A stretch of DNA of 63,725 nucleotides, counting the filler, from Sluysia triapertura (taxonomy: Eukaryota): assembly GCA_046118255.1 (NCBI GenBank). It is 4 parts of 4 records of this genome, joined end to end, with 100 filler letters (N's around TTAATTAATTAA, not from the genome) between each part and the next. Parts side by side here need not be neighbours in the genome. Positions count along the whole stretch, not along the records: positions 18,831 to 31,400 come from JBJNIA010097773.1; 3 more parts are not named here. The stretch is one strand, 5' to 3'. Below, piece after piece: positions 4,611 through 59,561 of the stretch. Position 1 is the stretch's first letter; every line of letters begins with the position of its first letter. Both the position numbers and the translations under genes were made by a program. The notes beneath the pieces are model-generated. The model was given only the letters and a program-made list of their open reading frames with translations, did not search any database and was not told where the DNA came from.

Positions 4611-6044
4611 ATATGTTCGCATTTTATTTTCATTTAGATGTCACTTTTTCATTATTTCAAATATAAAAATGTTTTACTGTTTTTCCCTCCTGAAACTTCA
4701 TTTTCAATTATATATTCACCATTTTATTCACAAAATGAATAGCCAATTTCAAGTGTTTTGTCAATAATCAATATAAAATCAATTGTGATTGTGTATATTT
4801 CTAAAAATAAAATCAATTGTGTATATTGTTTGTAAATTATGCATATAAAACCAATATAAATTGTGCGTATACTTAATGTAAATAAGATATAATTATGTAA
4901 GAAGTAATTGTAAATGTAATAATTATTTGTAAATAAAATAATAATTTGAAAATAAAATAATTTATGTAATAATAATTTAAAAAACATTTTATTTTACTGT
5001 AAATATTTTAATTTTAAAAAAAAAGTTTTATAAAATTATTATTAATCAGTTATAATTATAAAATTATTTACAAACGGATATTATATTTTTATAAATAATA
5101 TAAAAATATTCCCTTTAATATTTTTATATTATTTATAAAAATATTCCCTTTAGTTATCCCAAGATTTAAGTCATTTAAAATTTCTGTAAATTAAATTACG
5201 GCACCGCTTGCTGTCATTAGTTTATTTTTGGTATTATTAGTGTCATTAGCATTAATTCTACATTATGATTTTGTAATATACGGAATTTGGTGAGAAATAA
5301 CAAGGTTATATGCCTATGATAAAAACAATTGGCTTCAGAACATAAAAGGCCAAATCAAAACATTAAAACATCATATCAAGAGACCACGCCATCGGCAACT
5401 GATAAATGTATTTCTGGTGATGTCAGAGATATTTGCGAAGATGATAAAGATGCTAAAGTTGATTGGTATGCAACAATGTTTGAAGGTCGTACAGTTTTGG
5501 ATACACCAAATCCAACCACTAGCGGTTCGGTATTAGTCATTTACCTCCAAAGACGACTCTAGAAGTTCAAGGGAAAGCAGCAAGGTAACTCGTAATAAAG
5601 TAGTTATAGAAGAATTTTGCAAGTGATAAAGATACCATTTATAATCTCGCAACTTCTATATTTTCCATAATGTTTGTAAAGTTTTAATTCGCTGTTTTTA
5701 TTTGGGTAAATTGTTCTTACTGATTTATTTTATTGGATAAAATTAAATTTAAAATTAAAAATTAAGTATAATTCGGCAAATATACTTGTAAATAAATTAA
5801 CTTGTAAATATATTTTGCAATAATGTTTTTTATTTCATAAAATTAAAATTGTTGAAGTACAGAATCTTGTAAATAAACTAAATCATTAAATAAAATAATA
5901 TTACAAAAATAATAATATCTTTATTATTATTATTTTTATACTATTTACTTTTTAGTATGAACGATTAATTAAAATCTTAAAATGTAATAAAATGAAAAAA
6001 TCAATATATAATAATTAGCTTTATATAATAAAACATTTATAAAA

Positions 6045-7354
6045 ATGCCTGTAGTTAGATTTGGTATTTGTGCAATGGATAAAAAGGTAAAGTCACGTCC
6101 AATGCATGAAATATTGTATCGATTAAGAAATTTTAATACAATTAAAATTATCATTTTTTCTGAAAGTTTAATATTGAATGAACCAGTTGAATATTGGCCA
6201 ATATGTGATACATTATTAAGTTTTTATTCCACTGGATTTCCTTTGGATAAATCTATATCGTACGCTCGTTTAAGAAGACCATTTTTAATTAATGATGTTG
6301 AAATGCAATATCTTTTACAAAGTCGAATTTTAATTTATAAAAAATTACAAGAAGCAAATATAAGAATACCAAATTATTTGTTTATGGATCGCTCAGATCC
6401 TTCAAAATTGCCAAAATTTGAAGAAACGGATGATTCGATTATGGTTATTAATTATTAAAAATTCAAAAATATGATTTCACAAAAGTATTATTAAAGCTTA
6501 TATAATTTAACATGAAGCGTTACTGTTATTTTTGTAGAATTTTTGGAGAATTTACTTTCTAAATTTCAGATTATTGTTTTGTTTCATTTTTAGTTAAATT
6601 TTACTTAAGATTAAGATATAAATATTTTGTGATTTTAGGTAACTACTTTCAACTGCAGTCTGGATTTTTGTATTTAAATTTTATAATAAAAATAAACGGA
6701 ACAATTTGACAGTGTATTTTATTTTGATTGTTTATTAATTGTGGTTTTTAATTCCAGCGATTAAACTTAAACTTAGTATAATATTACGTATTATTTTTGA
6801 ATTAATTTGCGAAGTTTCTTTATTTTAAATTTTTAGACTGAACTGTGTCAATGAATTTTCTAAAATCTAAAATATTGAAATAATTTACATTTATTTTTTA
6901 TCGAAAATGCAAAATGTAGTAGAACTTCCAATAAGTCGACGAATTACGAAAAATATGTTATAATATAAAAAATCACACTTGCTGTAAGTTTATTTTGATT
7001 TTTTAATGAACATGTAAGTTGTTATTGCCTTCATATTTAAATAATTACTACTTTAGTTATAATTACGAAATATAATTTATGTATTTAAAAACAGTTATTA
7101 TGCATTAAGTTATTCTGTATTTGGTTTTTTAGATAAATGATGAAATCATGACAAAACCATTTGTGGAGAAACCCGTTGATGCTGAAAATCACAATATTTT
7201 CATTTATTTTCCAGTAGATGCTGGTGGTGGAAGGCAAGAATTATTTCGAAAAGTAGGAAACAAAAGTAGTAGATATGTAAAAATAAGTAAAGTGAGGAGA
7301 GAAGGATCATATATTTATGAAAAATTTCTAATGACAGATGGAACCGATATTAAA
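6045..7354 (+). CDS. PPIP5K: VIP1/PPIP5K inositol hexakisphosphate/diphosphoinositol-pentakisphosphate kinase, 5' part only (exons 6045-6443, 7133-7354)
   Basis: Motifs [53 protein letters not shown] and [17 protein letters not shown]. An in-frame GT-AG intron (6444-7132) joins DDSIM|INDEIMTKP. There is a donor GT at 7355 but no downstream exon was found. Confidence 0.93.
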
Positions 7355-10097
7355 GTTTGTTTTTGTTTAAAATATTGCAAAATAGCTTTTAAATATTGAT
7401 ATAGGAAAACAAATAGCTTTTAAAAAGCAATTAGGTTTAAAAAGCAATTATCACATAAATTGTGTTATTGAAACAATGGAAATTATTTAATTTTCTTAAT
7501 ATGATCTCTATTAAATTAGTTTCGTCTTAAAGTATTTGAAAAAATTAATATTGATAAACATGCAGTTAAAAAGATAATTTGAAACTTCTTAAAGTTTAAA
7601 TAAACATGCCACATACATTGCAATTTTAAATCAAATACTATCAATAATAGTTGACATAATTTCTCAAAAATGTGGGTAACTTGAAGAAAATCCATGAAAG
7701 AATTCAAATGCAGTTTTTAAACAGTGATTAATATTTTTACAAAACTTTCAATTTCATCTTAGGGAAAAGTCAAATACAATACAGATAAAAGTATGCATAA
7801 TATTATATATTAAGAGCTTATTAAATAATTTCCGAAATTAAGAGGTAATATCAAAATGAGAATTAACGGCATTAATATTGCCAAATATCACATATAATTA
7901 TAACAATTTCTTGATTAAATGCAAATCAAATAATCAAATATAAAAATTACAAAAGTATCTACTAAAAATTGATCATAGTTTGCATAGTTATGATTAAATC
8001 GTCATCAATATAACACGCAGAAGTACATTTAAAAACATTTAAAAAAGCACTTAAGGAGGTCATACAAGTTACGAAATGTCTCTAAGCGCCAAAAAACAAA
8101 CAAAATATAAAAATCATTAAAAAATAATAATAATTTTTATTAATTAAGATTCTACTAAATTTAATATTGTAAAATAAACACAACCAGTTAAAACGACAAA
8201 GTTAAAGTACAGATAAATATTTAAATATAAAAATTCTAATACATAATTTATTTTAGTCAAATTTATTTTAATTAATTTTTCCATCGCAAATTTATTTTAA
8301 TTAACTTTAAAAGATTTTTCCATCGTCTCGCCAAGTTAGTTTTATTTCGATTATTTTATTTTAATTATTTTATTATTTATTTTATTTAATTATTTTATTG
8401 AACAATATTTTATTATGATAAAAAATTATTAATTTTAATATTCTATAAAGAGTTAATTTGTGTAATATTTTGTTGTATAAATTATTGTCAAAAAATTAAT
8501 CTGTATAAATTATTATAATTATTTAATTTATTTGTTTTCTATATCTAATTTAATTGTTTTTCTTTGACCTTGACATAAACTACTATAAATACAGTAAGCT
8601 TTTCATAACTTCACACACAATTTTTAAAAATTTTTCAATTCGAAGTTGCGATTTAAAAGTCTAAGCTCTTTTCTTATTCGGCAGTGTTTACAATTTCAAG
8701 AATTAACTCGCCTAGTTTGATCCAAATCATATCATTTGAGAAAATTCAATTCCAATTACTCATTATATTGCATATTAACGTTAGTTTTTGTTCGTAGGAA
8801 TTTTTTTAGCAATATTTAAAATTGCATTTGTAAAATTGTAACTTAAATTATAATTAAACTAATTGTGTTATCCTTTATTGATAACAATGTAAATTTCTTA
8901 TTTCTTAAAAAATTTTACATTAAAGATTATCAACATAATAATCTTTGTAAATTTTATTATCACCCTATATAATTGTTATTTATACGTTTTTTGTCTTTAA
9001 TATAAATTCATTTTGTTAATCAAAGTATTTATTTATTAAACTAATCAATCCTAATAAAATCTTTAAAATTTGATAAGGGTTCATTTAGTCTGAACCCGAG
9101 TAAAATATTTTGACAATTAACGGTTTGTATATTCAAACCGAAGAAAAATCCATATCATTATAGGTTTTTTAAAATCTTATTAAAATCGATTATAAATTTC
9201 ACTGCCCCTAAATTACTACTCGTGTTATTATTAAATTATTAATTTGATATTTTAGCTTGTCATTACTTATATTTTGTGAAATAATAATCTTTATATTAAA
9301 TTGATAGAATTTTTTGATTTTAAAATTACGTAATTCAAGCCTTGATTATTATAGAACATTGATATTAATTTCTTGAAACATTTTTGCCAAGGAATCCTTG
9401 TGACCTCCATTTTACTATTTAAGAAAATCCAACGATTGGCCATTTAGTTTGTAAGTCCAATACGTTGGTGAACTCACTAGCTTTAAATTTTATTCGCATA
9501 AGCATATAATTCTTGCAATATATATGTTATTGTTGCTATCTGACGTTACACAGGTGAAAGAAATACAATGCTCTTCATTTTTCTCACTGGCATATATATT
9601 ATCAGAAACTACTTGGATATTTACACCACCGTTAACTCCTATTTGAATTAACAAATTTAGATCATAATATTCAATTTAAAACAATTGAAGACTTAATGAA
9701 AAGTGTACTATATGATCAAAAAAATGGAAGAAGCTAGAAGGTATGTATTATTTTCTCAGGTTAAAGATAGAATACTTACGGAAATAGTTGAGACTTCTCT
9801 GGTTAAAAACACAAATAGACCTGATTTTGAAAGATTGTTATCTGAAATTCTTTTGAAAAAGCAGCTAAAAATGTTATGAAACAAATATGGGGAAAATTCC
9901 TAATTTTTAGATAAGCAATATCAGGTCTTATGGGAGTTTATTATATTATAATAATTATTAAAACATTATTTCAGCAATTAATATCCACTTACGAATTATA
10001 TAAAGTTAATGGATTAGGCTGGAAATTATTCTTAGGCTTAATACCATGTTTAGTGAGGCCGTTGGTATCTAAGCATTTTCATGATAGAATAATATAG

Positions 10098-10760
10098 TTG
10101 GAACAAGATAGAACAAATTTTAAAGTATATTCAACTACTACTGAAGATGGAGAAATAGATAACAAGATTAACCAACAAACAAAACATCAAGAAAAGGTAT
10201 ATAAATCACTATTCCCAAAAATAGATAAAGAACAAATACCAATTTATAATCAAGAAACTACTATAGTTACATATATAGAAGAAAATTCGGAAAATTTAAA
10301 TTCAAAAATCGTACATAATGATGCTACTGCTCCTTTTGTTAGAATGCTACATACTACAGATGGATTGGCTGCAAATCCAACAATTTCAATTCAAGTAAAT
10401 AATAAATGGAAATTGGCCTTAATTGATACTGGCTCGTCAACTACTCTTTTAGATTACTCAGAACTTAAACCTTACCAAATACGAAATATCGAACAAACGA
10501 ATATGAAAATTATTGTGATGTCTGGAAATACTATCACACCAGTTGGAATTTTAAATTGTAATATAACTATAGGAAAACAGAAAATTACTCAAAACGTATT
10601 GGTTGCAAAAAATTTACCTTATCCATGCATTGTAGGAATGAATACATTGTCTCAGTTAAAAGATATAGTTTTTTTCGTTATTATTGTATTTCTTGAAATG
10701 TTTCTTTTCCATTTTCAGATTTCTATGTTTTTCTTGAAAATATTAGAGCTCTTGAGGTAG
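10098..10760 (+). mobile_element. LTR retrotransposon (Ty3/gypsy-like) aspartic protease remnant
   Basis: LALIDTGSSTTLL active-site motif and C-terminal PYPCIVGMNTL. No RT follows. A decayed gag-like stretch lies upstream (~9540-10090). Confidence 0.85.
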
Positions 10761-18730: not shown

Positions 18731-18830
18731 NNNNNNNNNNNNNNNNNNNNNNNNNNNNNNNNNNNNNNNNNNNNTTAATTAATTAANNNNNNNNNNNNNN
18801 NNNNNNNNNNNNNNNNNNNNNNNNNNNNNN
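18731..18830. other. artificial contig linker N44-TTAATTAATTAA-N44
   Basis: 100-nt spacer with stop codons in all six frames; repeated identically three times in the window. Confidence 0.97.
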
Positions 18831-19220
18831 AGTTAATTAAGATTTTTAATTAATTAATCTATTTTTAGACTTAATCTTATTCTACGTTTAAAGGTTTTAT
18901 TGAGGTTCTAAAGGTTTTTAGTAATTTATAAGGCATTCAGGAGGCTCTAGTTGTTTTCACCTTCATCTCTCTGATTCCTTTTACTACTTCTTCATGTTAA
19001 TTATTACTATGTTAAACTTATCTTTATTATTTTGATCAAATATTTTATTTCTCAATTATTTTAAAGATTTTATACACTTTATAAGGTTACTAAAATATCT
19101 CAAATGCTTATCGATATTTCAAGAATATCGATAACTCCGCATTCAAAAGTTATTCATAAAAACGTACTTTTTCTTAATTAAGTTAATTACGATTTTTAAT
19201 TAATTAATCTATTTTTAGAA
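18831..19220. repeat. repeat family A copy 1 (probable gypsy 3' UTR/LTR-associated sequence)
   Basis: AGTTAATTAAGATTTTTAATTAATTAATCTATTTTTAGACTTAAT...GGCATTCAGGAGGCT is nearly identical to 31507 onward. The start motif recurs at ~19172-19220. Confidence 0.85.
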
Positions 19221-23465: not shown

Positions 23466-24130
23466 CAGTAAACTCCCGATTATCCGTGGATAATATTTAG
23501 AAAATGCAAAAAGGAACAGAAATAAAGAATCTTCCTGTTTACTACAATCAAAAAGGAGCTTGGATGGACAGAAGGACCTTTGATCATTGGTTTAAAAATA
23601 AATGGATCCCAGAAATTTTTTTTGAAAAAGTAAAGGTGTGGTTCCTCACGAACACTGATGTCATCAAAGAATTTATTGAAATATTTTTTTGTAAAATTTT
23701 TACCAAATGAATATGTCAACCAGGAAATATAACTGTACATCCACCTCAATAAATAAATAAATTTTTATAACCTAAAATAACATCTTTAATTCATCCTATG
23801 GATCTCTTTAATGAAACGCCATTATCTCAATGATCTCCTTAGAAGCTTTTGCAGCGAGAATGACGATTTAATGAATTTATGGAAAAAAAGACAATGCTGG
23901 ATGCAATATATGGAGCTATTAAATCTTGGAACAAAATTAAGCCAATAACACCAGTTCGATCGTTGTTGAAAATTTTGTAATGTTTCGGACTCTATTGAAC
24001 CTGAGATATGTAAAATTTCAGATGTTATTATGTGATGTTATTAGGCTTTGAAAATATTGGCCAAAATATTGAGAAATTGATGGAATTTGATTCATCTGAT
24101 CCAGGATTCCAGATACAGAGTTACACGGAT
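23466..24130 (+). mobile_element. internally deleted Tigger/pogo DNA transposon (DDE_1 remnant)
   Basis: TA|CAGTAAACTCCCGATTATCCG terminus, then LPVYYNQKGAWMDRRTFDHWF and PKITSLIHPMD (cf. PNxTSLIQPMD), with frameshifts. Confidence 0.85.
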
Positions 24131-24158
24131 ATTATTTAGTCATTTTAGTGATTTTAAT

Positions 24159-25930
24159 TTATACTTCTGTATTATAGTTGTAAAAATCAAAGTATTTTGA
24201 TCTATAGACTCTTTGCGATGCGTTAGCCATTGAGAATAAAGTTAATAGGGTAAGTGTTATATTTCGTTTTATGTTATTTGTTCTTATGATTCTATTACAT
24301 GCGAATATAAAGTAAATGGTGGCAAAAATTAGAAGTGCTATTATGAAAATATTCTTCGTATCCAATTTGTTTTTATTAAGGTCATATAATGTATTGTTAC
24401 TTGTTTTATTAGTAATATTACGTATTCTGCTTGTTTCCTTTGAAATTTCTTTATTTCTACATTTGAACGTTTCTTGGAAATTTCTTATTAAAAACTTGTT
24501 ACTGTTATGCATAGCAAAGGTTATTATCGCAGTATAATAAATTGAATTTTCACAATAATGAATATTATTAATTGTAGGTGTTCTCCTCATTGATAGTAGT
24601 TTAAAGTAGGTGCAGTATTGATCTCATTTATAATTTGGGATACATTTCTATTATCAATCTCAATTGTCCAATATCAATTAAAACTATTTGTTAAGTTTGA
24701 TGAATAAGGTATTACCATCGTTACTAATTGGATAAACAATAATGTGAAAGTTATTATATAGAGAAATTTATTATTCTGGATCCATCATATAAACATTTAC
24801 TACTGCTGCTACTACTATTACCATTAAATATTTCTACACGAAATGTATTCAACTGAGAAGTTTATAAAACTTTATTGTCCCACCAATCAAGATTTTCCCA
24901 ATATGGAGTTGGCGTTTGTGGTCTTAGTGAATTTAATGGAGAAGTTTGATAATTTTATTATGGTGGTAATGGTGGTATTGCTCTTATTATTGGAGGCAAA
25001 ACTAGTTGTGGTAATACTCAGTGTGCACCTAATCCTAATCTTCCACGTATTACGTCCATACCTATTATAACTTCGCATTGGCATCTATCCCATGCTAATA
25101 TTGTTACGAATAAGTCTACGTCTAAGATTGTTAATTGACATTGTAACGTTCCATTAAACATGATATTTGAACCGTCTACTGTAAATAATCGTATGCCAGC
25201 TTGTTGTAATATACTAATTTATGGTGCATTTAATATATAACAAATCTTACCCAATTTTGATTGAATTTAATACTTTGTACTATATGATTTTATATCTGAA
25301 AGGAAGATGTTATCATATTTATTGAACTCGTTGATTTATCTGAAAATGGTCTAGGTGGTTTGGCCCTATCTTTTATTTTTGGTTCGACTTTTAAAATACT
25401 TTTATTCACCTTTCTATTTCTTAAACTATATTCTTCTTTTGGTGCTATTTTGCAACTATTTATGTGTACTACAAATGTTTCAGCATTTATATCATTCGGT
25501 TTCTTAATATATAAATTGGTATACGTTGTTTTCATCACCTCATAAATGGTTTATGTACTTTTGAAGAATATCATGGTTTCGCTATAGGATAAAATTATGT
25601 TCATTTTAAGTTTATGTTTATCATAAGCATCTTTATAACTCTCTTGAGAATATTTTATTTGTAATCCAACTCGTTTCCAATATTCTTAAAGATTTTCTCG
25701 CATTATTGTAACGTTTTCGGGTGTTTCTAAATAATTATAAGTAGGTCGAATCCGATCTAAATCTACTGGCATATTCGAATGTCTTTCATACATTAGATAA
25801 AATTAAGTAAAGTTTGTAGCATGATGGACTGAACTTCTATATTCAAAAAGACATATAAAGGTGCCAATCTTTTTACCTTTAGTCAAAATAAGATTGTAAC
25901 ATGTTTATTAAAGTTCTATTGATATTTTTA
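24159..25930 (-). mobile_element. decayed Ty3/gypsy pol 3' end: integrase, retropepsin-like segment and env-like membrane region
   Basis: CLFEYRSSVHHATNFT*FYLMYERHSNMPVDL (integrase), FVVHINSCK (end of GPY/F module), IRLFTVDGSNIMFNGTLQCQLTI...CEVIIGMDVI (retropepsin C-half), a Pro-rich linker, then hydrophobic segments IFIIALLIFATIYFIFAC and ITLTLLTLFSMANA. Confidence 0.75.
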
Positions 25931-27439
25931 AAATATTAAAATACATTTTTAAAATATTAAATCTTTTTATTAATTGCATCACTAGTAAAGTTTGTTCCTT
26001 GGTCAGTTAATAACTTTCTTGGTGTTCCGTATCTATATGTTATCTTTTCTACTAATATTTGTGCTACTGTTTCAGCTTTCTGGGTTAGCTTCAGGTACTG
26101 GATATTATAGCCATAAGGTTTTTATTTTGATTAATTTAGTTAAATTTGAAATGAGGTTCGGAGTTGATTTAGAAACTAGGGGTAAGTTATATTTTATTAA
26201 GATTTTATGAACAAGTTACGAATCATTGTGACAGTTAAAAACAAATAAAATCGACATATATTGAACGCTTATAAAATATATTGTTATAAAAATAACTAAT
26301 ACTAATAAAAATTTTGGTCAGACTTGGTATATCTTCGAAACCATGACTTGAAACTGTACGTTGGAAGGGATGTCGTCCATACTCACAAAATACCAAAGAA
26401 AAACCTATAGTAAAATCAATTAAATAAATCAAGACTCTTATAACTCGCTTCTAAGCCGTTTCATTGCTTCGTGATAGATCACTAAAAAATAAAAAAATAT
26501 TCGTGTTTTAGCTTTAGTTTAAATGAACTATGAACTATTTGTACTTGAAAACAAAGACCAATTTGAAAACCAAAATCAGCTAATAATAAAATAACAGCTA
26601 ATCTTAGTTCAAAACGATTTTACACATTTAAAAATTTGATATAAAAACTTGAACCGTTTAAATCAAGACTCAAAATGATGCGAACTAATATAATTACATC
26701 ATAACAATCTGTATCATGTTTTAGAACACACATGGATAATTTGCTTTCGATATTATCCATTTTAATCACATGTAGATCTTATAGTCTATAAACTTTATTT
26801 TAGATAGGATCTTTGTTGCACTACGTATAACAGTAATAACAGTTTCTTCAGAAAATCCTAATCTTTCTTAACGTAGCGTAACAATAAACAGATCCCCTTT
26901 AACTTCAATTTTAATTCATCTAGAGTAACATCATCAGTTAATATCCTACGTAGGTCTAGCTTTTGATTCAGAGCAGGTACATATACTTCTGTATCTAGTA
27001 ATTCATCTAAAGCTCAAATGGTCGAATCCGCTGGCAAATTTCGATTAAATCTATCTTCATGATATACTGTAGTAAATTCAAAATAATTTATGACGACTTC
27101 ACGTTCACATATAGTAGCAGTCATTGCATTAAATAATCCAGAATGTCAAAAATGTCTAACAAAGTAATTAAAGTTATATTACTAAAATGATTTTTAAAAT
27201 AATTCTTTTAAGGCAAAAATAACACTTTTTGTACTATTTGTCTAAATTCTGGATTAAACAGCAAAATAAGTAATAAAAATAGTGACATCTCGGTGATAAA
27301 ATAAACAAACTGTGATAGAGAAATTAAAATTCGACCTGACACTGTCAGCTTATGATACTAGCTGCACCACATTATATTTTCATCATTTTAAAAACGTTTT
27401 ATAATTAAATTAACTTCATCAGCTAATAATAAATAATTT

Positions 27440-31400: not shown

Positions 31401-31500
31401 NNNNNNNNNNNNNNNNNNNNNNNNNNNNNNNNNNNNNNNNNNNNTTAATTAATTAANNNNNNNNNNNNNNNNNNNNNNNNNNNNNNNNNNNNNNNNNNNN
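31401..31500. other. artificial contig linker
   Basis: N44-TTAATTAATTAA-N44. Confidence 0.97.
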
Positions 31501-32015
31501 TAATTAAGTTAATTAAGATTTTTAATTAATTAATCTATTTTTAGACTTAATATTATTCTATGTTTAAAGGTTTTATTAAGACTCTAAAGTCATTCAGCAC
31601 TTATTTTAAGGCATTCAGGAGGCTGTAGATGTTTTCACCTTCACCTCCTTCTACTTCTTTTCTACTTCTTTATGTTAATTATTACTAGCTTAAACTTATC
31701 TTTATTATTTTGAACAAAAATTTTATTTCTGAAGCATTTTTAATGATTTTATACACTTTATAAGGTTACTAAATGACTTTAAATACTTATCAATATTCCA
31801 AGAATTCTTAAAGATTACTAAGGTCTTAAATGATCTAAAGGTTCTAAAGTTCAAAGGTACCTTAATGCTTCTAAATGTTTTTCAAGTCCATCTCAAGCTT
31901 CCACAAGGTCTCAAACCCTTATATAGGTCTTTGGAACCTTAATATATTCTTTAGCTGTTAAAATCATTATAAATATTTTCTTTTTCATGATTCTTATTTC
32001 ACAATATTTATAATG
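31501..32015. repeat. repeat family A copy 2
   Basis: Near-identical to 18831-19130 and collinear with 38430-38920 (e.g. AGGTCTTTGGAAC). Confidence 0.85.
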
Positions 32016-34889: not shown

Positions 34890-36240
34890 AAATGATACCA
34901 GGTTTAAACATCTTCAGCAACAATTAAATATTAAAATTGATAAAAAGTACAACAATGAAGCTGATCCAATTGCTTCACCGTTAACTAGAGACCTTCACGA
35001 TCATGTAACAAAATTTATGAATTTAAATTATGTTAGAAATTATATCTAATCATATAAAGATGTCGAAGTATTAATACGACAATTAGAAGAATCTGATCTA
35101 AGTTTGAGAAGTAGTACAAAATCTAATAATGATCTTGATTTGCGATGTTTACAAATTATTCATGCGATACTACATAATCGAAAAATACAATTACCGACAC
35201 ATTTGTAAAATCGTATAATAGATAATAAATTACAAGAAATATTTAAAGCTATCGATCAAGTACAGCTTAGTTCGAATATGTTAGAAGTATTTAAAAGGTT
35301 CTCAAATACAGATGATTAATCCTATTGATTCCGTTAGAAAGGAAGTTATCATATTAAAATCATTTATGTCAATTAATGGAAATTCCACACTACGATCTAA
35401 TATGTTGCAATTTTTCCTGAACTCGAAAGAAGAAGTCTTTTTCTATGTAATTACACATCAACTTCAAGATGCATTTGATGATTTGAAAGATAAAAAATTA
35501 AGTTTTGCCAATAATGAAAGTTTTGTAACAAAAAAAACTACTACATGCATCAAAATCTAAGTCTTGCCGAGCAAAGAATGAATGTTGTCCGATTTGTTAT
35601 CCATCTCGAAGGAAATATGAAGCGAAGAATACAAATGAATAAATTCAGAATCGTTGTCCAATCACATTGATCAAAATCATGTTAATGAAGAAAACTATGA
35701 ATTGGAAGTTATTGTAGATAAAAATAATCAATAGGATCGTTTGGAAGGTAATGTTAAAAATGAAAATCCAAAAAATGATGCCAAGAAAGAAAATATCATT
35801 AAGCCAGTATCCATTACTAAAACAGATCCACAACAACAAGTTAATTTAATACTTCAAGTGTTATCTAGAATATGTATGAGACAATTTCATGAACTACAAA
35901 ATTATTTACGCCGTCAATCTGATAATATTGCTGCCGTAGATGTTGTCAGTTTATATATTCAAAAGAGAATCAATCTAACATCGATCAAAGAAGCCATCTC
36001 GGCAACCAAAGAAACTTAACTGTTGTTTATCGTACTAAAGTAATAGATTTTTCGAATTTTGTATTAAGAAATGAGGAGTTGCGTAAATCAGAGAGAGAAA
36101 TAAGCTATTACAGTTATATTTATCAACAAGTCGAATTATTATATTACCGATTGAAGAAGGTGGAAACGAAGCATCAGAACTAGCCGATGAAATCAAAACA
36201 ATAATCGATATCACTGTTATGCTCGATGAATGCGAAGTAA
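34890..36240 (+). pseudogene. IP3 receptor/ryanodine receptor-like fragment (RIH-associated region), disrupted
   Basis: LILQVLSRICMRQFHELQNYLRRQSDNIAAVDVVS resembles the IP3R/RyR motif LQLLCExHNxxxQNYLRxQxxNxxxxNxV. Upstream DLDLRCLQIIHAILHN...AIDQVQ. Several in-frame TAA codons and frameshifts. Confidence 0.65.
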
Positions 36241-38397: not shown

Positions 38398-38920
38398 GCA
38401 TTCAAAAATTTTTACACAAGCGTAATTTTCCTTAATTAAGTTGTTAATTAATTAATTATTTTAACTTATTTTATTCTAAGTTTAAAGGTTTTAATATGGT
38501 TATAAAACTATTAAACACTTTATAAGGTACTCAGGAATCTCTAGATGCTTTCAACTGCACCACTCTGATTCTTTTTCCACTTTTTAATTTCAATTATCAA
38601 TGCATTAAATTTGTCTTCAACATCATTAACCATAATTTTAATCTTTGAACATTTCAAAGGTTCCAAACTTTTTTCAAGGTTATTCGAGGGTGTCAAAAGT
38701 TTATTAAGATCTTAAATGTTTTCAAAGATTCCGAAAGATCAACAAGATCTAAAACGATCCCAAAGTTCAGAAATTCAAAGGTATCTTTCCAAACCTTACT
38801 TAAGTCTTCACAAGGATTTCAATACCATACAAAGGTCTTTGGAACTCCAAGGTATTCTTCGGTTTTGAAATAATTATAAACATTTTACTATTCATTATTC
38901 TTACTCTGAGAATGTTTAAC
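38398..38920. repeat. repeat family A copy 3 (diverged)
   Basis: GCATTCAAAA...CTTAATTAAGTT...AAGGTACTCAGGAATCTCTAGATG...GGTCTTTGGAAC is collinear with copies 1 and 2. Confidence 0.8.
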
Positions 38921-45240: not shown

Positions 45241-46433
45241 TTACAATTTATCTATAATCTGCGTATGTAATTTAAATAGATAAATAACTTACCACTTGCC
45301 AAATATTAAGCACATTATCTTCTGAGACTGAAGCTAATGTCCAACTTTTATCATATGACCAACCTATATCGCTTATTGCATCATTATGTCCTAAGTGAGC
45401 TAAGATAGCTTCTGGGCAAGTATTTTCTTCTTCAACTACTGATAGAACATCGTCACCTATTCTTGAAATATCCCATAACGTAGCTTTATTACTTAGACCT
45501 GCTACTGCAAAAATCGTTTCGTTATTTGGTGCCCATTCAATTCTATATACAGGAAAATCAATGGGGAAAACATGCAACTCCCTGTCCATCCTTCTTTCAT
45601 CCCATAATCGTACAAATTCATCTGACCCACCAGTTAACATCAAATTGTGTGCAACAGAATGCCAAACCACAGAATTTACATCACTAGAATGAGCTTTACT
45701 TTTAAATATTAATGGCTTTTTTTTTCTTATATCCCATAGGCATAAATTTCCATCATCACTAACACTAGCAAAGTTATTTGCAAAATTTGGCTTCCACGAA
45801 ACATCTTCTACTTTATCAGAATGTCCCGTAAAAGTGGAAACTGGATTAGAACTATCAGTTGATCTATTTATATCCCACATGTTAATAGTTTTATCGAATG
45901 CAGCTGTGAGTAAATGGCCTTCTTTTACTGTATTCCATGAAATACCATATCCTTCTTCCGAATGACCAATTAAAGTCAAAATTAATCCATCTTTTCCATA
46001 TATATATGAATTTGCATCTGATGATCTAGTGCCAATTAAATCATGATTTTGAGGCATGAATCTAGCCCGATTAACGTCACCACTATGAAATTTTGAATAC
46101 GTTTCATGAATAGTAGCACGTACAGGAAAACCAATTTCAAAATCACACCTTTCCGGAATTTTATTTTGAATTTTTACACTACTTATAATTAACTTGTTTT
46201 CACCGTCCTCGGCATGCGTACCCAGCAATAAAGTTAAAGTTTCTACATCATCAGATCTAAATTATTTCAATACAAAATTAAATAAAAACTAACAATGTTA
46301 TGCCTGGAACCCATTGACAGGTTAAACTTGGCCATTTTAAGGTTTCATAATCTAGCATATTATATATAAATATTGAATTTAACTCCCAACAATCTTGACC
46401 CTCATTTTCATCATTAACACATAAATGAGACAT
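45241..46433 (-). CDS. RBBP4: RBBP4/RBBP7 (MSI1/p55/CAF-1 subunit C)-like WD40 histone-binding protein; exons 46433-46294, 46256-45293, probable last exon 45258-45241
   Basis: LKWPSLTCQW, LLLGTH, HSGDVNRARFMPQN, GHSEEGYGISW, VEDVSW and WTLASVSEDNVLNIWQ. A 37-nt intron (46257-46293) keeps frame. A GTAAGT donor at 45292 with a 34-nt intron gives IIDKL*; this last exon is uncertain. Confidence 0.9.
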
Positions 46434-53349: not shown

Positions 53350-53870
53350 CCAGATGAATTATAAGGCACATAAAGTTATTGAGAATAAAGACAATGTGTA
53401 TGAAGTTATTCCGACGAAAATAGTATGACTTATGTAGAACTAATGAATGATAGAATGCATAAAGTATTTATGAATGGATATAACATGTTTCACGTAAAAC
53501 CGCTAAACAATAACGTATATAAAGTTATTATGAATAAAGATAAAGTGTATGAAGTTGATATTAATAAAGATATGACTTATTTAGAACATGTGAATTAACC
53601 ATGCTTAAAGATCATATTACTTTTACAGAACAGTTGAACGATGAAATATATGATGTAATTACGAACCAAGACGATATTGTTTATGTGAGACTGGTTAAAG
53701 ATAAAGTATATAAATTAACAATGAACATAGATATGATTACTTATGCAGATCCAAGGAACGATAAAGTGTGCGAGGTGATGTCTAATGAAAATATGAATTT
53801 AGATTACAAGTTCCTGGTTGAAAAGATATATAATGTAATAACGAATAAAGATCATTGTGAAGAAGATTTT
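53350..53870 (+). repeat. coding-like tandem repeat, ~60-nt/20-aa unit (ORF 53601-54068)
   Basis: EQLNDEIYDVITNQDDIVYV / RLVKDKVYKLTMNIDMITYA / DPRNDKVCEVMSNENMNLDY / KFLVEKIYNVITNKDH. Further broken units lie upstream. Confidence 0.65.
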
Positions 53871-54380
53871 ATATACTTTAATATTTGTTTTTATGTTTTA
53901 TGTGAGTTTTTTATGATACTGGACTTAATCACTAAAGGACTAGCACATAGATTTACAGCGTCAATAAAAGAATGTAAAATTGGAGGTATATATATTGTCG
54001 GTCCTACATGTTTCTTAATTCTAAACACTTATTACAATTGTATTTTCCTAATAAAGATTTTATTATGACTTTTAATATAATAATAAGAATAATTATTTAT
54101 TAAAACACAAAAAGTTAAATCAAATATTGTTTTATTCAAAAAATTGTTCAACTCAAAAATGCTAATGATTATAAAATGTTAAATCAAATACAAACTTCAG
54201 TATCATTTTATGCAAAAAATTGTCATATTTAATAATCAAGTGTGCTTATAAAGTGTTAAATTACATACACAGAATTATATATTATAATATTAAATTTAAT
54301 CACAAAATATCACACGAAATATTATATAGAAATTAAATGTTCGTTTAACGTCTGTATTACTATCGTTAGACTTCATAAAA

Positions 54381-58108: not shown

Positions 58109-59286
58109 TTAATTAATTTCATTAATATACGAAATGTTATTGCTCCAATTTAGATTTAATACTCCAAGACTACTAAGGATGTTTTCAACTCTGGAGAAAT
58201 GATCGGCATACTGTCTAAATTCAGTATTTGGAGTTGATAATTGGGTATATGCAACCGATCCCATACTTAACACAAGTTCGAATAGACAGATTGCCTTTTT
58301 GATAACTTCATCAGAATTTGGTACGTTTATAGCATTTGTAGCAAATGTGCATTTCTCTGATCGAAAGTCGTCTTGGAATTCATAAGGATATAAACCGTCA
58401 GCAGGATTTTTGATATTTTCTTCGCTTGCTAATGTATTATTATTCTGTAAAATAGCTTGTTGATCATTCGCATAGTTTGGTGGTGAGAATTCTACAGCAT
58501 AATCTTTAATATCGGCCATAACGTTAATTAGAACTGCGCATTGTGTTTGTATATCTTGAGAAAAATTGTCATCATCATCGCTAATCATAATAGATTCCAT
58601 TTTCATTGATATATCGTCGATATTAGGAACTTCTAATGAATTGACAGTGACATTGTTGAATTTAAGTCGGCTAATTGTAATGCATGTATTTACTTTTATA
58701 GTAATATTTTATCTGACTTTTAATGTAATTCTTTGGATGACTTTAACAATGCGTGAAATATTTTACTAATTTCAAGATCTCTTAGGAATAAACCTTTAGT
58801 ATAAAAGCGACTTTAAAATTTCATATTATATTTTATTGATTGAATATAATAATTTAAGGTTGATTCATGGAAAAAGTGTATAAACCAAATTCTAATGTAA
58901 TCGATCTTTGTAACGAGATTGTTGACATGGAGCTGATATTCAACACAATCCTTCGCACTTCTTTCTTTTATAGATATCCAAAGTTTATGATCAGAACTGC
59001 ATTTGGGTATAATAAATATACATCTAATAAATAAATATCTAATAAATATAATAGATATACACATGAGTTGTTGATGTAAGAGTACTGCTTCGATGGTAGG
59101 AGTTTCCATACAATGATCGTGATTAAAATAAACATCTCTAGTAATTTCGTTGCTATCAGTATCTATCGTTTCGTATTGATAGAGGTCAGAATCATGATGA
59201 CAATTATTTGTAATATTTTCTCTTTGACTGAGTAATTTTAATTCTTCAAGTTTTAAACTTTTGATTTTCTGCTTTACTTCATTCAT
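58109..59286 (-). CDS. hypothetical protein (spliced or disrupted), unidentified
   Basis: Two long collinear ORFs (178 and 165 aa) with protein-like composition. A candidate ~39-nt GT-AG intron lies near 59025-59062. The junction between the ORFs is unresolved. Confidence 0.4.
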
Positions 59287-59561
59287 TATTGACGAGATGA
59301 TAAAATAAAATTCATAAAGATTAACCGAGCAATAATTACGAAAAATCAATTTACATACAATGTAGCAGAATTTATGAAAAGTTAAGTAAAATAAAGTATT
59401 ATTAAACGTTTTTTTTTAAAATTCTCAATTTTATTTTTAAAAATCTTTTTAAGTTTTCAAATAACAAATAATTTCTTGTGTGAGTTTTTGTACTAATAAA
59501 ATTATTTTGAGTATCTGTGTCTGGATAATAATGATAAAATAATGATGAAAATAATGATAAA

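Follow-up and report, generated by a model that had tools for sequence, protein, structure and literature searches.

A second retropepsin and signal-led membrane units behind the integrase of a dead Ty3/gypsy copy in Sluysia triapertura

Described elements closest to the locus

Ty3/gypsy errantiviruses of the GAG-ENV-POL, HSV/gB type have been reported from Platyhelminthes, Nematoda and Bryozoa (Chary and Hayashi, PMC13524379, who also cite Sacco et al. 2022 for gB-type elements of this layout), and carry a gB-like fusogen between gag and pol, as do relatives of the element described here. By eye, the gB of two of these relatives (P0017 and P0020) resembles the Smed_errantivirus rows in supplementary file 2 of that paper, a likeness to Schmidtea elements which suggests that the host is probably a flatworm. 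The portions of PMC13524379 available to us name one protease and no membrane protein after the integrase, whereas our relatives have both an extra protease and a post-integrase membrane cassette; a word search found ‘protease’ once in the main text, and ‘protease’, ‘fibronectin’ and ‘ankyrin’ nowhere in seven supplements, while the deposited sequences and figures may hold parts that are not described in words. The giant planarian gypsy elements Burro / GYPSM1 have env in frame between gag and pol as well (Arkhipova and Yushenova, PMC6431247), and share with relatives P0010, P0057 and L002 the organization as one huge polyprotein with add-on modules including ankyrin repeats. Compared by description, the Burro ORF1 spans about 4,900-5,100 aa versus up to 3,426 aa in our relatives, the accessible part of PMC6431247 leaves a second protease, FN3 domains and a post-integrase membrane cassette unmentioned, and BIR, BCL2 and MATH domains were found in 0 of 26 proteins scanned here.

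Belpaoviruses with a phlebovirus-like env, e.g. Atlas virus (PMC9094657), resemble the locus in that the glycoprotein region follows the integrase, but the relatives described below show no phlebovirus or BEL/Pao matches, and the first membrane unit of the locus is short and Cys-poor. Small exchangeable membrane-protein cargo after pol is likewise carried by LTR elements of bdelloid rotifers with their diverse ORF3s (PMC5408684); there, as far as the portion at hand describes it, ORF3 is separate, whereas here the cargo is joined to pol in the same frame and in many cases follows an additional protease. For Kuafuorterviruses the passages at our disposal (PMC11673190) describe an ordinary pol and mention no extra protease, and those on Troyka (PMC12440569) and in PMC13238120 contained nothing leading to a post-integrase protease or cassette. 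An earlier note, made from the sequence of this locus alone, had proposed an undescribed architecture. The env between gag and pol is already published; a post-integrase protease combined with a membrane cassette is apparently undescribed, since no description was found in the literature searched, with Sacco 2022, Grohme 2018 and Repbase as sources that may bear on its novelty.

The element in the window

The window, i.e. the whole stretch of DNA that was analysed (63,725 nucleotides), has a GC content of 25% and contains fragmented host genes. On its minus strand an element reads, in order, integrase, retropepsin, Pro/Ser linker, signal-like stretch, ectodomain, transmembrane (TM) helix, basic loop and a weak second signal (Table 1), so that all parts claimed in the earlier note are found, in the claimed order, in sequence and translation. 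Its membership in Ty3/gypsy (Metaviridae) is indicated by a gypsy-type integrase core and C-terminal region; the order protease, RT, RNase H, integrase is present in relatives, and the window copy is truncated on its 5' side near 26120, inside the integrase. All ten relatives used in tblastn cover 26118-25350 at 33-47% identity, and a single frame (25868-25236), interrupted by four stops, comprises the integrase C-terminus, the linker and the first protease half. Upstream of the copy, tblastn with relatives and Pfam gave no match to RT, RNase H or gB. That the copy is dead and ends at a Tigger remnant, as had been claimed, is borne out by in-frame stops, frame changes and the DDE_1 match adjoining on the plus strand, the end of the remnant at about 24135 being a by-eye extension from the translation beyond the Pfam match. 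Flanking direct repeats that might represent LTRs are absent among those listed for the window, where the copy is truncated, and from the eight of 23 loci examined in this respect, which are truncated as well.

Table 1. Features of the element, its boundary and a related fragment in the window
Feature	Positions	Strand	Evidence and remarks
Integrase core, second half	25819..26121	-	Pfam rve E 6e-4, below the curated cut-off; frame changes inside; 5' end of truncated copy
Integrase C-terminal region, with in-frame stops	25410..25868	-	phmmer best E 4e-27 (1.84 billion proteins)
Linker and N-terminal half of post-integrase retropepsin	25236..25409	-	Frame shared with integrase C-terminus
Break where the catalytic motif is expected	25233..25236	-	Frame change; D[TS]G unreadable in window copy
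Post-integrase retropepsin, second half	25045..25221	-	Profile E 9e-9
Linker, Pro-rich then Ser-rich, with in-frame stops	24790..25017	-	Sequence; 24840-24939 deep in other copies
Signal-like hydrophobic stretch 1, frame differing from linker	24710..24766	-	Hydropathy 2.37; 24740-24789 deeply covered
Ectodomain-like unit 1 (~119 residues, 2 Cys, 5 sequons)	24354..24709	-	One stop and one frame change
Predicted transmembrane helix	24297..24353	-	Hydropathy 2.54
Basic loop and weak second signal-like stretch ending A-x-A	24219..24296	-	Sequence, hydropathy
Start of likely second membrane unit, cut after ~20 codons	24159..24218	-	24190-24239 deeply covered by other copies
Tigger/pogo transposase remnant bounding the element	23498..24135	+	Pfam DDE_1 E 7e-6 at 23498-23944
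Separate related fragment: gB-like C-terminal part, TM helix, DTG retropepsin	9491..10673	+	tblastn P0020 E 3e-74

Pfam by itself matches the second protease half weakly (RVP_2, E 0.11). Against a profile built from 12 retropepsin domains (11 of relatives, one at window position 10098), this half scores E 9e-9 in a search of 642 chunks from a six-frame translation of the window; leaving aside the profile's own domain at 10 kb, the best remaining chunk reaches E 1.2. The N-terminal half matches weakly (E 1e-4 alone, E 0.33 against the whole window). An X read-through of the window is colinear from the integrase through the protease with P0008 (E 1e-40), P0010 (E 3e-38) and P0017 (E 2e-23). Sequence comparison over the second half hence firmly assigns the segment to the retropepsins (A2-type aspartic proteases). 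The earlier note had found no catalytic DTG in it; indeed, D[TS]G is not readable in the window copy and a frame change occupies its place, which looks like a lesion of this copy because one other contig has 37 additional letters at the break. Among the 40 of 77 differences between copies that are listed, nine of the ten in the second protease half affect third codon positions (p 0.0004), a bias not seen in the other four segments; of the ten in-frame stops, four coincide with a listed difference.

The other copies are contigs of run X1, which is possibly the window's own source, and are thus not independent. They deeply cover the integrase, the protease, parts of the linker, signal 1 and the start of unit 2, whereas most of 24240-24739 has a summed depth of 14-600 compared with 8,000-44,000 in several flanking bins, depth not being equal to copy number. 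Five bins within this stretch reach 180-600 and exceed the single-copy depth of 14-20, from which we infer that parts of the unit 1 region are present in some other copies; since one contig connects 24212 with 24762, omitting 549 letters and having unknown ones in that place, unit 1 may be missing from some copies or be replaced in them. The earlier note had named absence of the hydrophobic region from other copies as what would speak against its reading, and this is what is seen in part: ectodomain, TM helix and loop are mostly thin, and the flanks are deep. No intact copy of the window family was seen, and the ORF from the protease to signal 1 and the upstream gB are known from relatives alone.

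As to the membrane tail, no dinucleotide shuffle out of 2000 matched the length of the 154-codon ORF at 24623-24162, and 14 of 2000 contained a TM helix with a hydropathy of at least 2.5, for a region picked post hoc in both cases. The claimed junction of TM helix, loop and signal is present by sequence and hydropathy, with the second signal being weak (best 12-residue hydropathy 1.94). The claimed N-x-S/T sites are there too, but carry little weight: the 12 other ORFs of at least 100 codons have 0-6. No homolog of the unit 1 ectodomain was found with Pfam, word-indexed protein search, an FN3-like profile or the tails of relatives: its best score against the FN3-like unit profile is -0.2 bits, below the best shuffles, its best match to the tails of 23 relatives has E 0.08, and word-indexed searches with the tail ORF and the protease-linker piece gave no match, which is weak evidence. 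AlphaFold modeling of the 154-residue ORF alone yielded a pLDDT of 56. The starts of units 1 and 2 show no mutual similarity (2281 of 5000 shuffles are equally good), and the Cys-bridged FN3-like unit of ~90 residues seen in relatives is absent from unit 1, unit 2 being too short to judge. What unit 1 has in common with the tails of relatives is thus their layout and not their residues. The cassette of the window family appears to consist of at least two tandem units, the first of which is rare or fast-evolving.

Elsewhere in the window, host gene pieces encode a PPIP5K N-terminal domain (6015-7399, plus strand), an RyR/IP3R-associated domain (35285-36019, plus strand) and a WD40 protein in an ORF of 329 codons (45272-46261, minus strand). 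A dispersed repeat family occupies 18787-19126, 31455-31805 and 38444-38719, two copies being about 88% alike and the third more distant, and stop-free frames of 166-200 codons with no Pfam match above cut-off lie at 58109-59415 (minus strand) and 53568-54068 (plus strand).

Protease, cassette and fusogen in the relatives

The integrase C-terminus retrieved 49 matches from 1.84 billion proteins, and further searches enlarged the set by 8 proteins and 23 loci; neither viral_contigs nor a first metagenome scan contained a relative. An integrase tree that left out 25 of 57 short matches places the window in a clade of 16 rows (support 95/88) with three proteins that have gB upstream and also bear an extra protease; a larger quick tree, which left out those matches and five long branches, has a 28-row clade with SH-aLRT 97 and 26 distinct relatives. 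The branch leading to the window row is long (0.9), and in the larger quick tree this row falls into none of the starred small clades. Phylogeny of pol, i.e. of integrase only, thus puts the window with elements having gB upstream, in trees from which the published GAG-ENV-POL elements are absent.

Ten of the 26 distinct relatives have a post-integrase protease, 13 have none and three end at the integrase. In these ten, out of 23 that are informative, a retropepsin with intact D[TS]G lies directly after the integrase in the same ORF. Together with the colinear alignment, this argues that the extra protease is part of the element, and the claim that it belongs there, rather than to a separate insertion, stands. 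The earlier note had asked whether integrase, second protease and membrane part form one ORF in intact copies; in the relatives they do, and this ORF is unbroken. The catalytic Asp follows the integrase end motif at a spacing of 51-66 residues in the eight relatives measured, and in the window 75 codons separate that motif from the break. Retropepsin domains number one to four per relative, at variable positions. A tree of 27 protease domains sets the clade's RT-adjacent proteases apart from accessory ones (unstarred, 82/85) and joins one post-integrase copy to additional upstream copies with support of 100/95, which is why accessory proteases appear to be mobile modules. Nine of the 13 informative relatives without a post-integrase protease have a membrane tail, so that this protease is evidently not required for release. 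In L001, L002 and P0057, ankyrin repeats and an Asp-less protease-like domain lie between the post-integrase protease and the membrane cassette.

A terminal series of signal, ectodomain, TM helix and short tail is found in 19 distinct ORFs, of which 17 belong to the clade and the others are P0052 and L014. An FN3-like, Cys-containing unit of ~90 residues occurs in one to three copies in 13 of these 19 tails (ten training proteins and three loci), and leave-out profiles recover it in all ten training proteins. For one such unit AlphaFold predicts an all-beta sandwich (pLDDT 79.7) with FN3 domains as top structural matches (Foldseek E 4e-4); a match to FN3 obtained with VIA (Z 8.7; rmsd 3.8, 98 aligned) is just above the tool's chance range, and a profile search of solved sequences is weak (best neogenin, E 0.016) and returns nearly all FN3 proteins. 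The viral structure library yielded no match at E 0.001 or better, and the ESM Atlas none that was usable for the ectodomain of P0058. A class I PDZ-type C-terminal motif ends 10 of the 19 tails, compared with 38 of 1045 internal positions, the tails being related and not independent; none of five ORFs without a full tail ends in this way. The FN3-TM module also occurs upstream of pol in L010 and P0062. Two sisters, L005 (1-4773, plus strand) and P0024, share a small ectodomain that is Cys-rich and not of the FN3 kind, with a PPxY motif in the tail, and the post-integrase protease is present in L005 and absent from P0024. Tandem repeats of 64 and 89 bases lie in the long non-coding region after the ORF in L003 (5849-6680) and L001 (8767-8944).

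A gB-like fusogen lies upstream of pol in six members of the window's integrase clade, namely those reaching far enough upstream (P0017, P0020, P0059 and P0060 by Pfam; L007 and L010 by phmmer), and three of the six also have the post-integrase protease. The 3426-aa ORF of L010 (2-10279, plus strand) comprises gB, two proteases, signal-FN3-TM, protease, RT, RNase H, integrase and a second FN3-TM. Within the window, a separate fragment (Table 1) is 40-55% identical to P0020 and matches Pfam Monjiviricetes_fusion (E 6e-15) and gag-asp_proteas (E 5e-7); it comes from a related element, which may belong to the same family. The gypsy polyproteins P0020 (HBK71150.1), L022 and L023 are filed under bacterial metagenome-assembled genomes, which likely reflects animal DNA in the bins.

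Possible processing and function

We suggest, with a probability of roughly 60%, that the locus is the dead, 5'-truncated remnant of one member of a multi-copy Ty3/gypsy family whose coding region continues past the integrase into a second retropepsin and signal-led membrane units, that the lineage is likely of the flatworm GAG-ENV-POL type and its tail hence likely an accessory surface protein and not a fusogen, and that the extra protease would help to detach pol from its membrane anchor. The intact polyprotein would then comprise Gag, signal, gB, TM, protease(s), RT, RNase H, integrase, protease, signal, ectodomain, TM and tail. Signal peptidase would cut at the internal signals to yield gB and one or more small type I glycoproteins, leaving pol tied to the membrane at both ends, and optional accessory retropepsins beside the anchors would cut it free. 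The cassette, which in relatives mostly has the FN3-like unit, a Thr-rich stalk and the PDZ-type C-terminus, might serve in attachment or steer budding to cell contacts. The lineage is likely enveloped, as the earlier note had also proposed; of that proposal the extra protease is upheld by its sharing one ORF with the integrase in relatives, but the tail as env fusogen is not, because the relatives' tail is a small, mostly FN3-like type I membrane cassette and gB sits upstream of pol. It is tempting to go further and to speculate, though tentatively and with odds well below even, that entry involves two glycoproteins from one polyprotein, a gB fusogen before pol and a fast-swapped attachment protein after the integrase (FN3-like, helical or tandem orphan, with PDZ-binding tails), with accessory retropepsins helping.

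The extra retropepsins might instead be mobile, optional modules that pair with a second protease domain within their own chain or cut host proteins, and do not release pol. Domain counts of one to four at shifting positions, an Asp-less tandem copy in two proteins, the movement of accessory copies between upstream and post-integrase positions, the gain and loss of ankyrin and C2H2 modules in the same region, and the four changes which the label needs on the integrase tree all fit such a role, but the first post-integrase copy keeps a narrow distance from the integrase and D[TS]G is retained in ten of ten relatives having it, so that we consider this explanation rather unlikely.

Belpaoviruses with phlebovirus-like env have an internal signal junction, and the earlier note had drawn an analogy to them. 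Accordingly, the tail might represent a Gn/Gc-like pair of envelope glycoproteins with the fusogen lost behind the second signal, as would agree with the TM-loop-signal junction and with a stretch behind the second signal that is common to many copies and cut off after ~20 codons. The phlebovirus glycoprotein is several hundred residues long and Cys-rich, far from a unit 1 of only ~119 residues with two Cys; Pfam finds no BEL/Pao or phlebovirus glycoprotein family in the window pieces or in any of the 26 proteins scanned, and clade members already have gB upstream. The analogy is thus not supported, and the pair itself is highly improbable. We regard it as highly improbable that ectodomain and TM helix arose by chance or through foreign DNA inserted in this copy, the family properly consisting of integrase, protease and a single signal-led unit: the thin coverage, the contig that skips the stretch and the missing homologs of unit 1 would be explained, but neither a frame and a TM helix beyond those of shuffled sequences nor five bins above single-copy depth would be expected.

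To our knowledge, descriptions of Ty3/gypsy elements mention a single protease and no more than one envelope protein. In the clade identified here, one polyprotein contains as many as four retropepsin domains together with a second membrane protein that is exchangeable. The window copy itself is dead, and its value is that of a pointer to this clade. If the two-glycoprotein entry were true, a retroelement would share out tasks much as herpesviruses or paramyxoviruses do among their glycoproteins. Should the cassette function in attachment or in targeting to sites of cell contact, the cell-to-cell spread of enveloped retroelements in flatworm-like hosts would become testable, and so would the processing of a polyprotein that crosses the membrane several times.
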